A DNA stretch of 64,000 bases, taken from NCBI GenBank assembly GCA_965207225.1, contig CBDBLV010000005.1, positions 1,184,001 through 1,248,000 on the forward strand, given 5' to 3'. Each line of letters begins with the position of its first letter. Position 1 is the stretch's first letter. Below are positions 5,860-45,476 of the stretch, piece by piece. Both the position numbers and the translations under genes were made by a program. This DNA comes from Dehalococcoidia bacterium. Its GTDB lineage: Bacteria; Chloroflexota; Dehalococcoidia; Plut-88900. The notes beneath the pieces were generated by a model that saw only the letters and a list, made by a program, of their open reading frames with translations, was not told the DNA's origin and made no database searches.

Positions 5860-6502
5860 AGGTCGGGGCGGTGGAGAGGGTGGGGTAGGCGATGGAAGAT
5901 CCGTGACCAGGGCGCAGGGGCCAGGGGGCCAGGCTGCGCCAGACCCGCAAGTCGGCAGGGCTAGAGGAAGTATCCCTTTGCGGCCTGTCCGTATGCGGGA
6001 GACGCTCTACCATTCGGAGGGATGGGAGCGCGAACTCTCCGCCGTCTCCGGGTGTAAGGGCATCTCCGAGAGATGAGACGGGGGAGTCCTGAAAGGGGTA
6101 TGAACCCCAGACGCTTTCAACCGTTCGGAGGGGGTCGGGCGTATCCTCCTTCCCGTCGCCGTAGTAAAGGGGAGTTCCGAGGGAAGCGACGGGGGAGTCG
6201 AGCCGGGGCGCGATGGCCTCCGGGGACCCGAGGGTGTCGGGTCGTCCCCCTGGCCTGTAGCCGGGGGTGAGTGCGCCATTAAGGTGGCGCAGACGCGGGA
6301 GGGACCTGGGAGACAGGTGTGCCGCGTGTGGTCGATGGACCTTCCATCGCCTGGTAGGAAAGGGTGAGGGGCTGAGGCGCGTGTCGGTGGCCGGGCGGTC
6401 GCGCAGCGTCCGGGTGCGACGTGAGCTGATCAGGCTGGTGCGTCTCATAGACTCCTTATTCCTTTCCTGTGATGGGCCCCGAGGTACGAGGTCGGTGGCC
6501 TG
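5860..6502 (-). ncRNA. Putative structured ncRNA, copy A of a three-copy family
   Basis: Sigma70-type promoter upstream; helix AGGAAAGG/CCTTTCCT; 16-bp long-range helix 6337-6352 with 5887-5902; two 77-nt modules inside; no credible protein. Confidence 0.55.
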
Positions 6503-6508
6503 GGGTGT

Positions 6509-6537
6509 AGTATAGCACGGGGGTTCAGGTAGGGCAA
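6509..6537 (-). promoter_or_regulatory. Sigma70-type promoter of element A
   Basis: TTGCCC-17 nt-TATACT with extended TG. Confidence 0.65.
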
Positions 6538-6573
6538 ATGTGCAGGTTGGGGGGGATGCCCCTCGACCCCCCA

Positions 6574-6713
6574 GGGGAACCCTCACCCCCTTGATCCCCC
6601 TCTCCCCCTCGAGGGACTCGGGGCAGGCTCTTAGGGCCTTTAAGGGAGAGAGGAGAACTAGAGGGCCACGGGAGTGCTGCGCACCCCCGTGGCCCTCTAG
6701 TTCAGTACTGGGG
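6574..6713 (+). repeat. Variable-palindrome repeat, copy R2
   Basis: Same flanks as R1, different hairpin (6655-6703). Confidence 0.85.
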
Positions 6714-6892
6714 AGAGGAAGGGGGGAGGAGGGAAAAAGCGTGAGTGGGCAAGTCCTAGATTCCTCGCGGGGCATCGGAATGGGATGGGAGAAGGGGGGT
6801 AGATTCAGGGTATGGGGGCGGGATGAGGGTGCTGCTTCGGTTCGCTATGCTAGACTCTAGCCTCGGCCACACTCGATTTCAGGAGGAGAGAT

Positions 6893-7414
6893 ATGGAAGC
6901 TAACGAGCTGCTTACTAAGATGTTGAAGCAGAACCGGAGCATGGTGAGGAAGGCTTTTGACGGGCTTTCGGATGAGGAAGTTTCGAGGAGGCCGAGTGCG
7001 GACTGTAACTCGATGGCGTGGCTGTTGTGGCACCTGTGCCGGGTGGAGGACGGCTTCATATCCTCGTTGGAAGGGACGGGGGAGCTATGGGACCAAGGGT
7101 GGTCGGAGAAGTGCGGGATATCGGAGGAGACGGAGGGGATGGGGTACGGGCACAACGCAGGGGACCTGGAGACGTTCAGCGTGGGGTCGGTGGATGCCTT
7201 GAAGGAGTACTTCGGGGAGACGGAGAAGAGGGTGGCGAACTTCCTGGCATCGCTGACCCCCGAGGGCCTGGACAGACAGGTGCCAGCAATGATTGGAGAG
7301 GGTACAGTGCCGGTGGCTGCCCACATCCAGATCCTTGTGAACGAGGCGCTGGTACACGGGGGGCAGATTGCGTATTTGAGGGGGATGCACAAGGGGATGG
7401 GGTGGTATTTCTAG
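6893..7414 (+). CDS. DinB/YfiT-like putative metalloenzyme
   Basis: NSMAWLLWHL..VED...H.GQI.YLR; AGGAG RBS. Confidence 0.85.
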   Translation: MEANELLTKMLKQNRSMVRKAFDGLSDEEVSRRPSADCNSMAWLLWHLCRVEDGFISSLEGTGELWDQGWSEKCGISEETEGMGYGHNAGDLETFSVGSVDALKEYFGETEKRVANFLASLTPEGLDRQVPAMIGEGTVPVAAHIQILVNEALVHGGQIAYLRGMHKGMGWYF

Positions 7415-7490
7415 AGCGTGAGGGGTGGGAGGGTGACCCCTCCCTCACCCCGGGATAGAGTGGAGTCCCACCCACCCACCCTGTTTCATT

Positions 7491-7525
7491 GACATATCAA
7501 AAATGCAGTGCATTTTTGATATGTC
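7491..7525. repeat. AT-rich 17-bp perfect inverted repeat between convergent genes
   Basis: GACATATCAAAAATGCA-G-TGCATTTTTGATATGTC. Confidence 0.8.
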
Positions 7526-7662
7526 CTTCCCAAGGGGGATGCCGGGGAGGGCTGTGAGTTGTAGATATCGGGGTAGGTTTATGGATGGGCGTTGTAGATT
7601 CCTCGCGGGGCATCGGAATGGGAAGGAAAAGGAATCAGGATGGAAGGGGACGAGGAAAGGAG

Positions 7663-43012: not shown

Positions 43013-43024
43013 AGGGGGTCGGGC

Positions 43025-44404
43025 ATGGACTGGCGGGAAGACTACAAGCGGAAGCTCGGGTCTCCGGAGGATGCGGCCGCCCGCGTGAAGTCGGGGGACC
43101 TGGTGCACACGGGCCTCCTGCCCATGCCCCGGTTGATTGCGGATGCGATAGTCGCGCGTCGGGAGGAGTTGGGGCATCTGGATGTCACTATGGTCGAGCC
43201 GGAATACGATCCGGGTTTTCTGGACAACGCTTTCTCCGACAAGTTCTCCGTCACGGTCGAAATTCACATAGGCAGCGTGGCTATCGATGCGATGGACGAG
43301 AAGCGGGTGGACTACTCACCTGTGCTGTTTTCCACTTGGTTCAAGCCGGTGACCGATCCTCGGCCTAACTTCCGGACGCCGGACGTGTTCCTGTGCACGG
43401 TGTCGCCACCCGACGACAACGGCTACTGCAGCTTCGGGGCAGACCTGTGGAACAAGCACACCCTTGCCAATATCTCCGGCACGGTCCTGGCGGAGGTGGA
43501 CGAACGGTTCATCCGCACCTACGGAGACAATCATATTCACGTTTCCGAGATAGATGCCTTCGTGGAGAACACGCCCCCGCCGATGCACGACGAGGAACTG
43601 GAAGGCATTATCGAGGCCATTGAGGAGGCGGACAGGCGGGAAACGCTCAAAGAGATTGCATGGAAGTTGGAGTTTGAAAGGCGTCGGGACTTTATCCCAC
43701 AGCTGGCGGACCTAGAGCTATCGCAAATGCGGCAGTGGGCGGGGTTTTATGCCGGCCTATCCGACCCGGGCCCCGTGCCCCGGCGGATTGCCGAGTTCGC
43801 TTCCGAGATGGTGCCGGATGGGGCGACCATCCAGCTCGGGACGGGGACGCCTTCGACGCTTCTGCCGACTCTAGGGGCGTTTGATGAGAAACATGACCTT
43901 GGCATTCACTCGGAGATGGGTGCGCCGGGGATGATCGACCTTATCGAGAAGGGCATTGTTACGGGCAAGTACACGAACACGCACCCGGGTGTGGCAAGGC
44001 TCAGCGCGCTTACAGCCACGAATATCCGAGAGCAGAAGTGGGCGGAATACAACCCCAAGCTGGACCTGCTGGAGTCGCACGACGTGGTGAACATTGCGGC
44101 GATATCGCAGATCGACAACATGTGCACGATAAATAACGCGTTGTCGGTGGACCTGTACGGGCAGATCAACTCGGAAACGGTGTTCGGAGGCCGACTGGTG
44201 GCGGGGACGGGCGGTCAGACAGAACTTCACATTGGGGCTATTCAGTCGAAGGGGGGTCGGGGGATCATCCTGCTGAGGTCCACGGCTCTGGGGGGCTCGA
44301 TGTCCCGGATAGTGCCGCAGATGGAGGAGGGGGCGATCGTGACGATACCCCGTACCTTCGCCGACATTGTCATTCCTGCGGAGGCAGGAATCCATCCCTC
44401 CTGA
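43025..44404 (+). pseudogene. Acetyl-CoA hydrolase / 4-hydroxybutyrate CoA-transferase, C-terminally truncated by a repeat
   Basis: DGATIQLG.G, LGIHSE, VDL.GQ..SE, GTGGQ; ends ...PRTFADIVIPAEAGIHPS, where the family continues with VVTEYG and several dozen more residues; the tail is the translation of a GTCATTCC..GGAATCC repeat. Confidence 0.7.
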
Positions 44405-44825
44405 ATAATCACCTACGACTCCACAACTCACCCCACTCAACTCCCTCCGTCATTCCCGACCCCGATCGGGAGTCCATCCCCTCCCCTGGGGCTGGGCTGC
44501 TCATCCCGAGCGAAATCGAAGAGCCTGCCCCTGCGAAGGCAGGGGGTTGATCGGGGGCTAGCCCACGCCCCTCCAATCCTTCACATCCCTCCGAAACCAC
44601 CGCGCCCCTCTCAGTCATTCCGATGCCCTGCGAGGAATCTGGGGCTGAGGCGAGGGTGTTCCTTCCCCTGAGGCTGGGCCGCTCATCCTGAGCGAAGTCG
44701 AAGAGCCTGCCCCTGCGAAGGCAGGGGGTCGAGCGTGGGGAGGCCCACGCCCCTCCAATCCTTCACATCCCTCCAAGCCACCGCGCCCCACTCTGTCACT
44801 CCGATGCCCTGCGAGGAATCTGGGG
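44369..44825 (-). repeat. REP cluster including a 160-bp tandem duplication (44484-44644 / 44666-44825)
   Basis: Two near-identical composite units ending GTCA(T/C)TCCGATGCCCTGCGAGGAATCTGGGG. Confidence 0.85.
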
Positions 44826-44845
44826 TGGGGTGGGTGGCCCCCCTC

Positions 44846-44988
44846 CCCCAGTACCGAACTAGAGGCAGACGTGGGTGCAACGCACCCACGTCTGCCTCTG
44901 TTCTTCTCTCCCCCTCGAGGGACTCAGGGCAGGCTCTTAGGGCCTATAAGAGAGGGGGAGAGGGGGATAAAGGGGGTGAGGGTTCCCC
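44846..44988 (-). repeat. Variable-palindrome repeat, copy R4
   Basis: Reverse-complement flanks of R1-R3; hairpin 44861-44899. Confidence 0.85.
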
Positions 44989-45032
44989 TGGGGGGTTGGG
45001 GGGTATTCCCCACAAAACCCGCCCGAAAGCCC

Positions 45033-45060
45033 TTGACTTATATTACACCCGTGCTAAACT
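45033..45060 (+). promoter_or_regulatory. Sigma70-type promoter of element C
   Basis: TTGACT-16 nt-TAAACT with extended TG. Confidence 0.65.
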
Positions 45061-45066
45061 GTTTCA

Positions 45067-45476
45067 CAGTTCGAACTGACATTCCATAACACAAGGAGGA
45101 ACCAAAACCCCAGGGAAGCCCCCGAGACCCGACCTAAGGCGCCGCCCCCGACTGCTCGGGGGACGCCATCTCCTCACTACGGGTCCCGTGTCACCTTCCC
45201 TGACCATCCTGGCGATGGATAGGCGCCCTGGATCCCATCTTCGTCCCATAACTGCATCTCGTCCCATTTTGTCCCTTTGCCCCTCACCTTGGGAGCGCCC
45301 TGGACCATCATCCCTGTTGACAGTCCAGGTCCTGTGCCCGACCCCGGGCCCCGAAAAACCGCTCTCACAGGAATAGGGGCCTTGTCCCTCTGGCCGTCTT
45401 CCATCGCCGACCCAAAACCCAACAGACAAAACAAAATGCAAACCAAGACCAGAACCCCACACCCCAACAACCACCT
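45067..45476 (+). ncRNA. Putative structured ncRNA, copy C
   Basis: Leader shared with copy B; CAGGGAAG(45111-18)/CTTCCCTG(45195-202); helix 45211-45225 with 45395-45408; shared tail. Confidence 0.6.

Follow-up and report, generated by a model that had tools for sequence, protein, structure and literature searches.

Structured elements with promoter-like sites and exchangeable cargos: a probable RNA family in one genus of sponge-associated Dehalococcoidia

Three intergenic regions in a 64,000-nucleotide (nt) stretch of a Dehalococcoidia bacterium genome (GenBank assembly GCA_965207225.1, contig CBDBLV010000005.1), which was analysed at full length and is here called the window, raise the question of what kind of genetic unit joins a promoter of its own to a long RNA fold around inserts of different sequence. 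A first-pass annotation, made from the letters of the window, had described these regions (copies A, B and C) as a three-copy family of promoter-driven structured RNAs in which a fixed scaffold encloses a variable insert, the cargo. The coordinates, strands and motifs given there for the three copies are all as described, and most of the interpretation stands, as the elements are promoter-driven by prediction, structured, absent from Rfam and built as scaffold plus insert; the scale of three copies does not stand. It is highly probable that the copies belong to a genuine family of structured RNA elements that is transcription-ready, under selection as RNA and not represented in Rfam; the function discussed below is something that we infer. 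The window corresponds to C5:1184001-1248000 of genome G000 (4.03 Mb, 5 contigs, 60% G+C, 92% complete), and G001-G008 denote further genomes of the same genus.

The size of the family follows from a search of G000 for the two 9-mers that form the outer part of a conserved long helix. Placed 50-900 nt apart, they give 50 pairs, of which 48 have the flanks of the family and 2 are chance pairs inside coding sequence. There are thus 48 copies in G000 and tens in each congeneric genome, three of the former lying in the window. Hidden Markov models (HMMs) of both junctions find no further copies in G000 and no empty scaffold either. The elements are about 450-900 nt long, and one of the 48 is split by an insertion of the IS21 type. 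This insertion, at C1:67090-69670 of G000, carries two open reading frames (ORFs), one of them IstB-like, and lies inside the 5' module of the copy upstream of uvrA, where it parts the promoter from the rest of the element.

The search of the genome and of other Dehalococcoidia that had been proposed with the first description gives a divided answer, with many copies in the genus and none in other Dehalococcoidia genomes. By BLAST, the family is present in 9 of 41 genomes, namely G000 and all 8 others of the genus (20-36 matches each), and absent from 32 other genera. A 27-nt motif of the 5' domain, allowing up to 3 mismatches, occurs in 9 of 401 genomes of the class, all of this genus (2-33 sites each), and in 0 of the 392 other Dehalococcoidia genomes, with 0 matches for a reversed-pattern control. 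Covariance model R1, built on the minimal 5' domain, matches 8 of 12 genomes of the order, missing the congeneric G004, and has no matches in 3 other genera of the order. Among metagenome contigs a 24-mer has one match, contig L189, which is a typical family member; a 27-mer has 0 matches there, and a 23-mer has 0 in viral contigs. The phage search of the inserts that had also been proposed, carried out as blastn of copy B against phage and plasmid collections, returned no match. The family is restricted to one genus of sponge-associated Dehalococcoidia.

The elements are assembled from modules in a constant order. In 47 of the 48 copies a TTGnnn-N16-18-TAnnnT site of one of four sequence types lies upstream of the conserved AAGGAGGAACC, at a constant spacing. 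The 5' domain consists of a leader, an AAGGAGG resembling a Shine-Dalgarno (SD) sequence, and a long irregular hairpin with the order P1 (GGGAAG/CTTCCC), CAC/GUG and P2 (GACCC/GGGUC), whose apex carries none, one or several optional modules, so that 130-366 nt separate the -35 element from the arm of the long helix. In the folds, the SD-like sequence is paired with the linker CCAUCC just 5' of the long helix and may therefore be a helix strand and not a binding site for the 30S subunit. The long helix totals about 15-22 bp, with the outer 9 bp identical in 48/48 copies and an inner continuation that is complementary and specific to the cargo type: 15 perfect bp in the B type, about 21 bp with one bulge and one mismatch in the AAAGACGC type, and 12+4 bp in the A type. 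Formed by the sequences on either side of a structured RNA, it runs for about two turns with almost complete pairing and appears in all minimum-free-energy (MFE) folds. The cargos of G000 fall into 10 types with 14, 10, 7, 6, 2, 2, 2, 2, 2 and 1 copies; all fold strongly, having in common a few motifs near their ends and a recurring X-module. A C/A-rich, nearly G-free tail follows, whose end is usually ACAAC[CT]GAATA; with up to 1 mismatch, this sequence lies within 140 nt after the arm in 28/48 copies. The 11-mer itself occurs 23 times in the genome against 1.3 expected, each time in intergenic DNA and 13 times at an element end.

Promoter types, 5' modules and cargo types are combined in many ways, and modules reassort between copies and between species. 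The idea of a fixed scaffold around an exchangeable insert is borne out by the presence of 10 cargo types in one scaffold and by the orthologous site upstream of the leucyl-tRNA synthetase gene leuS, where copy B lies and where the cargo differs between species. Two other views of the architecture were rejected. The cargo is not an invertible segment, as all cargos have the same orientation relative to the scaffold with 0 minus-strand matches, and a candidate palindromic operator, CACGGGTCCCGTG, proved to be the 3' strand of the P1b/P2 helices.

The same parts are found in each of the three window copies (Table 1). In each intergenic region a promoter scan yields a single sigma70-like site, whose place and strand are those predicted, compared with 0.1-0.2 sites when the A, B and C intergenic regions are shuffled, and the promoter type of copy A is kept in 7/7 A-type copies. 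The long helix GGCGATGGA...TCCATCGCC is confirmed at 6351-5888 (A), 36669-36363 (B) and 45211-45408 (C), as are the helices that close the 5' domains, which are present in the MFE folds of all three copies. The fold of copy A has an MFE of -280.3 kcal/mol and a z-score of -6.53.

As first described, A, B and C contain no credible ORF, and a 900-aa ORF over copy A (4073-6775, minus strand) is a low-complexity artefact of the C-rich strand. It is very improbable that the elements are decayed or unusual protein or leader-peptide genes, or diverged forms of a known RNA such as a T-box, a group II intron or a transposon guide RNA. The A-type copies do have a TAAGGAG followed by ATG that opens a frame in 7/7 cases, and this frame is shared for the first ~31 codons; it then diverges, one of the seven has ACG in place of ATG, and B- and C-type copies have AAGGAGG without a start codon behind it, the open frames stemming from the C-rich strand. 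The position of copy B upstream of an aminoacyl-tRNA synthetase gene would suit a T-box leader, but no T-box model matches and synthetases account for only 2 of the 31 identified downstream genes. A riboswitch or another gene-specific cis-regulator was likewise rejected, given functionally diverse downstream genes and cargos of 10 unrelated types. A transposon guide RNA (omega RNA, bridge RNA) was rejected with 0 matches to PF07282 and PF01548 in G000, where no iscB or tnpB gene was found either. The window has 0 Rfam matches at gathering score, in agreement with the earlier view that no known RNA family is involved, and a search of 12 loci covering all 10 cargo types against Rfam 15 at E<=1 finds only a genuine 5S ribosomal RNA (rRNA) and chance microRNA and small nucleolar RNA matches far below threshold. 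Families without a match include T-box, riboswitches, group I and II introns, HEARO, GOLLD, ROOL, OLE, 6S, tmRNA, RNase P and the self-cleaving ribozymes.

Selection can be judged from the ortholog of copy B upstream of leuS in G008. Compared with G008, G000 is 96.8% identical in the promoter and leader, 95.5% in the 5' domain, 93.9% (260/277) in the cargo and 90.5% in the tail, with 15/15 identical positions in both arms; at the 4-fold degenerate sites of leuS the identity is 82.7% (267/323). A larger alignment of 52 B-type cargo sequences from 7 genomes (14 from G000 and 38 of 39 fetched from six others, one fetched locus without recognisable arms being excluded) yields 67 pairs in RNAalifold. 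Standard pairs fill 99.2% of the cells; sliding the 3' partner by 1-3 columns lowers this to 34-46%. Changes on both sides of a pair occur in 35 cells against 4.4 in shuffles. Single pairs show full substitution pathways, for instance C-G 13, U.G 30 and U-A 9, or U-A 21, C-G 19 and U.G 10. Read on the promoter strand, the non-Watson-Crick cells are G.U in 188 cases (26 pairs) and A.C in 20 (14 pairs), and 4 of 5 arm mismatches in other species are G.U on that strand; this asymmetry implies that the promoter strand is the selected RNA strand. The substitutions that preserve pairing, G-U included, which had been noticed in three copies, thus hold in the larger alignment. The cargo is conserved beyond pairing as well: in 52/52 sequences there are long single-stranded regions that do not vary and a hairpin loop, CCCUCCGA, that is equally invariant and complementary to UCGGAG. 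Purifying selection thus acts on both the sequence and the pairing of the RNA strand that is read from the promoter.

Some observations pull the other way. The observed value is reached by 0/500 shuffles on any of five measures, but such figures are not probabilities, because the pairs tested were predicted from this very alignment, whose sequences are linked by kinship and gene conversion. The latter is visible as patches common to paralogs, and the G000 and G008 orthologs differ in a block that each shares with other paralogs. Outside its 6-bp core P1 is weakly kept (A.C in 64 cells, G.U in 21), and the fold z-score of copy B is only -1.55.

The position of the elements gives the first indication of what they might do. 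The elements sit 5' of host genes and point at them: with genes called by a simple codon-usage gene finder, the next gene downstream is co-directional in 43 of 47 copies (one further copy lies at a contig end), 25 copies are in divergent and 1 in convergent settings, and in tandem settings 18 run with the genes and 3 against them. A Pfam scan covering 30 of the 47 downstream genes shows them to be diverse, with uvrA, recA, gyrB, rpsO, def, lgt, folD and moaA among those scanned, as well as genes for a catalase-peroxidase, a fructose bisphosphatase, a class I Glu/Gln-tRNA synthetase, CoA-transferases, amidohydrolases and an IS481-type transposase. Their functions span DNA repair, translation, cofactor and lipid metabolism and catabolism. 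This strong positional rule shifts the reading towards a cis-acting leader or cassette.

The leuS site illustrates the rule. Five of six species have an element there, with a B-type cargo in G000 and G008, a C-type cargo 83.8% identical to that of copy C in G005, and two other cargos in G007 and G002; at the same site G001 has no element, and an R2 repeat abuts the leuS promoter region directly. A tool scan finds no sense-strand terminator-like site in the interval between copy B and leuS; copy A is followed by one. The LeuRS protein has its closest relatives, 62-68% identical, in Dehalococcoidia. At the C site, G008 agrees with G000 in the upstream repeats, the promoter and the 5' start, but a longer stretch takes the place of the cargo, 943 nt compared with 533 nt in G000.

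Our tentative preference, held with somewhat less than even confidence, is that the elements are cis-acting processed leaders or expression cassettes with the build of an rRNA transcription unit in miniature. A strong promoter would fire through the element towards the gene, and the 5' domain would be protective. The long perfect helix would act as a processing stem of the RNase III type, whose cleavage would free the downstream message from the structured cargo and the 5' domain, while the unstructured C/A tail with its motif reminiscent of rRNA leaders would govern read-through, with Rho and Nus factors as candidates. Copies that are followed by R2, such as A, would end as stand-alone RNAs.

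The likeness to an rRNA operon lies in a strong promoter, a leader, a long helix from the flanks of a structured RNA and a spacer, all in the same order. ACAACYGAATA is also found in the 16S and 23S leaders of G000, after the boxA-like TTAACAAC, where it starts the processing stems, and again upstream of 5S. The rRNA genes of this genome are single-copy and unlinked (16S at C4:510741-512337, 23S at C5:49658-52796, 5S at C4:597450-597567); the 16S and 23S flanks form helices of at least 23 bp beginning at the ACAACYGAATAG motif, and their leaders contain the boxA-like sequences CCTTAACA and CATTAACA. One element copy lies 470 nt upstream of the 5S gene with an R2 repeat between them. The boxA consensus GYTCTTTAANA, as quoted in PMC5725501, is gamma-proteobacterial; it fits the rRNA leaders and only partly the element tails. 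The elements differ from an rRNA operon in that the cargo is not rRNA, that there are 48 copies in G000, and that the role of RNase III and Nus factors is putative.

Several points weigh against the preferred reading. Transcription, read-through and cleavage of the elements are all things that we infer from sequence. Of the boxA-like core, the part of boxA to which NusB/NusE bind, the tail motif has only ACAAC and lacks TTAA. Four copies face a convergent gene, among them A, with a gene for an MscS-type channel, and C, with a NurA-domain gene. The promoter-like sequence of leuS itself is kept in 6/6 species (a stricter tool scan does not call it), and the gene after the metagenome copy L189 also has one; since many downstream genes keep such a sequence of their own, their transcription does not require the element. 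Across 48 copies there is no variation in the outer 9 bp of the long helix, which implies that the sequence itself is recognised and not just its pairing, and the invariant arm could be a DNA-level site. Finally, the repeat R2 lies between element and next gene in 20/48 copies, an arrangement that fits stand-alone RNAs better than leaders.

R2 has about 130 copies genome-wide and occurs in the window at 44850-45000, 5510-5670 and 6560-6725. It consists of a perfect hairpin of ~19 bp, whose stem differs per copy, with the conserved flanks CTAGAGG...CCTCTGTTCTTCTCTCC; the hairpin is followed by a T/C-rich run and a G-rich block, GAGGGGGATCAAGGGGGTGAGGGTTCCCCTGGGGGG. It is always co-oriented with the elements, its hairpin is called terminator-like by the tool used, and it stands just upstream of the promoter in 30/48 copies.

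With R2 before 30 and after 20 of the 48 copies the elements look like insulated units, and this is one reason to consider that they are stand-alone, trans-acting structured RNA genes, a new large class of noncoding RNA such as a ribonucleoprotein (RNP) scaffold, a ribozyme or a protein sponge. Here the cargo would be the product and the scaffold would serve only expression and processing, with the orientation rule reflecting tolerance of poorly terminated co-directional transcription. This is a possible explanation, though on the doubtful side. The conservation of the cargo beyond pairing and the excess of its identity between orthologs over that of neutral sites suit it well, the end motifs and X-modules shared by the cargo types are reminiscent of peripheral-domain variants of one RNA, and A and C have no co-directional downstream gene. 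By contrast, about 46 paralogs with 10 unrelated cargos would be unusual for one trans function, and the bias in orientation is strong (25 to 1 in divergent over convergent settings, 18 to 3 in tandem). No partner protein gene travels with the elements, whose neighbours are diverse, and no ribozyme or RNP RNA of Rfam matches even at E<=1.

A more far-reaching variant, which we regard as rather unlikely, is a new kind of RNA cassette system in this genus, made up of dozens of small transcription units resembling rRNA operons. An invariant stem would present, and after RNase III-type cleavage release, large structured cargos that recombination at the arms swaps between loci; the cargos would be new functional RNAs (for example ribozymes, the cores of RNPs, or RNAs with targets in the sponge host or in phages), and the downstream host genes would be co-regulated via the shared scaffold.

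A dispersed, multicopy family of intergenic sequences found in one genus could also be selfish DNA. On this account the elements are non-autonomous mobile DNA in the manner of transposable elements of the miniature inverted-repeat type (MITEs) with an outward promoter, GGCGATGGA.../...TCCATCGCC is the site of a recombinase or transposase, and RNA folding is a by-product or a need of the mobility mechanism. The 9-bp inverted repeat, invariant in 48/48 copies while the rest of the element diverges by 10-25% between copies, would be expected of such a site, and the leuS site is occupied in some species and empty of the element in G001. The elements are also biased in orientation with respect to local GC skew, with the sense strand being the locally C-rich one in 41/48 copies (+-10 kb, genic bases only; 38/48 at +-20 kb), compared with 52:48 for all genes; the 16S and 23S genes share the polarity of the elements. 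As GC skew in this genome is many-domained with no sign switch at dnaA, the orientation bias is not translatable into replication direction. In addition, the genome has many other dispersed repeats (R1-R4).

The closest parallel to such mobile DNA is provided by the Correia elements (NEMIS) of Neisseria. As described in PMC10969869, these are dispersed intergenic repeats, mostly upstream of genes, with sigma70-like promoters and an inverted repeat that gives rise to a long transcript hairpin of the kind cut by RNase III, the cuts falling at the inverted repeats; promoter, position and hairpin are therefore all points of likeness. The elements described here are 4-8x longer, without sequence similarity to Correia/NEMIS, and have their promoter outside the inverted repeat, which is internal to the scaffold; no target duplication is seen next to the arms, the cargos are structured and of 10 unrelated types, and orthologous copies are retained under purifying selection with strand-specific wobble.

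A mobile DNA origin of the family is unlikely, the comparison with Correia elements breaking down over terminal repeats, neutrality after insertion and strand symmetry. Conserved family sequence extends beyond the inverted repeat by ~130-370 nt upstream and ~60-90 nt downstream in all non-A copies, so that the inverted repeat, being internal to a conserved scaffold, was rejected as a terminal inverted repeat of a MITE; the bases adjacent to the arms, CCA and GAC, form no direct repeat, and the outer ends of the element are blurred by abutting R2, R1 and R3 repeats. The genome holds no empty scaffold and no inverted cargo. Paralogs are never near-identical (best 88-93%), and the best paralog of B, at 90%, is less similar to it than its ortholog at 94%. 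Orthologs are conserved well above neutral sites, and wobble specific to the promoter strand is not expected of a DNA site. An autonomous partner was sought and rejected as well: G000 has no match to TnpB (PF07282), IS110 (PF01548) or a Y1 transposase, other DDE families not having been searched, and the IS21-like and IS481-like copies that do exist have neither sequence kinship nor linkage to the elements. None of the four reverse transcriptase (RT) genes of G000 lies within 17 kb of an element copy. The RVT_1 matches at C2:158087-158773 and C5:1548409-1549095 have identical scores and each lies in a 586-aa open frame, the two further genes encode 641 and 652 aa, and all four probably belong to group II introns or other retroelements.

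Non-identical paralogs, the lack of a transposase match and conserved orthologs together suggest elements of long standing that have been retained and that trade modules through recombination at invariant segments; they do not suggest an active cut-and-paste element. If the elements are cis-acting cassettes, spread and cargo exchange would likewise proceed by recombination between copies at the invariant segments, with no need for a dedicated transposase.

Other long bacterial RNAs offer a second frame of comparison. HEARO (the omega RNA of IscB), GOLLD, ROOL and OLE are long RNAs with intricate folds and, in some cases, many copies per genome, and they came to light through comparative genomics. 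The elements described here are also long, intricately folded and multicopy; they differ in having their own promoter per copy and an exchangeable cargo in a fixed scaffold, membership in these families being judged through Rfam only. STAB-SD of the Bacillus cryIIIA messenger RNA is a 5' stabiliser with an SD-like sequence, which recalls the perfect AAGGAGG near the 5' end of the element RNA with no start codon behind it; in contrast to STAB-SD, the SD-like sequence here pairs with the CCAUCC linker in the folds.

If the reading of the elements as selected RNAs is true, about 1% of the genome would consist of dozens of self-promoted structured RNAs of 450-900 nt lying before housekeeping and catabolic genes. 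This would amount to a genome-wide, RNA-based layer of control or processing built from interchangeable modules, unlike riboswitches, in which one aptamer serves one pathway, and unlike MITEs, which are short and neutral after insertion. The family would then allow one to study, in a natural system, how module exchange diversifies large RNA folds, how transcription and processing signals of the rRNA type are reused by other RNAs, and which roles structured RNAs play among uncultured sponge symbionts. For metatranscriptomes, ready probes exist in the invariant 9-bp arms and the 27-nt 5' motif.

Table 1. Parts of copies A, B and C and adjoining features, in window coordinates
Feature	Position	Strand	Details
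Copy A promoter	6509..6537	minus	TTGCCC-17-TATACT with TG; 9/12 matches; sole promoter-like site in 5350-6890
Copy A RNA body	5860..6502	minus	5' domain, long helix, cargo, short tail
Copy A 5' closing helix	AGGAAAGG 6468-6461 / CCTTTCCT 6363-6356	minus	Present in MFE fold
Copy A long helix	Arms 6351-6337 and 5902-5888	minus	434-nt cargo inside, carrying two X-modules
R2 hairpin 3' of A	5608..5649	minus	Terminator-like, 19-bp stem
Copy B promoter	36924..36952	minus	TTGACA-17-TATCAT; 11/12 matches
Copy B 5' domain	36670..36917	minus	Leader, AAGGAGG (SD-like, 36887-36881), P1, apical optional modules of the P1-P2 hairpin
Copy B P1	GGGAAG 36867-36862 / CTTCCC 36685-36680	minus	Present in MFE fold
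Copy B long helix and type-0 cargo	36363..36669	minus	15 bp; arms 36669-36655 and 36377-36363
Copy B tail	36300..36362	minus	C/A-rich; end motif ACAACCGAATA at 36323-36313
leuS, the gene B points at	33760..36195	minus	Promoter-like sequence of its own at 36272-36244
R2 hairpin directly 5' of C promoter	44860..44900	plus	Terminator-like, 19-bp stem
Copy C promoter	45033..45060	plus	TTGACT-16-TAAACT with TG; 9/12 matches
Copy C RNA body	45067..45476	plus	AAGGAGG 45093-45099; fold z-score -2.72
Copy C P1	CAGGGAAG 45111-45118 / CTTCCCTG 45195-45202	plus	Present in MFE fold
Copy C long helix and cargo	45211-45408	plus	Cargo type with 2 copies in the genome
Copy C tail	45409-45476	plus	C/A-rich

The long intergenic regions of this genome are mosaics of the repeats R1-R4. 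Besides R2, these are R1 (GTCATTCCGATGCCCCGCGAGGAATC, ~100 copies), the related R3 (GTCATTCCCGGCCCCGATCGGGAACC, ~50 copies) and R4, which consists of TTTAGGCGTCATTCAATCAAACCAGC followed by GTTCAATCAA-like tandem units and has ~35 copies; sites of these three repeats in the window are 37075-37100, 45485-45510, 5690-5725, 6760-6790, 44610-44640 and 44795-44825. Contigs of four DNA runs (X1, X5, X8 and X10), compared with the window over 33700-47100, break at repeats. An apparent deletion allele at copy C, joining 44987 to 45666 with 39 other letters, was rejected as such, as it matches an R2-R4 arrangement elsewhere in the genome.

The neighbourhood of the three copies has some features of its own. 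No tRNA or transfer-messenger RNA was found in the window. Downstream of copy C, at 45795-48904 on the minus strand, the NurA-domain gene adjoins the gene for the selenocysteine elongation factor SelB. GC skew changes sign from + to - at window ~43000-45000, gene order relative to G008 differs on either side, and many alternating skew domains are found genome-wide. Next to copy B, a low-G+C island (37163-40687; 0.50 compared with 0.61) contains three minus-strand ORFs of 515 aa (sigma70 region 4), 159 aa (no family) and 503 aa (HATPase_c_3). This island is absent or diverged in several metagenome runs and the synteny with G008 ends at its edge. Run X8, which is labelled sponge metagenome, has contigs that are 98-99% identical to it.

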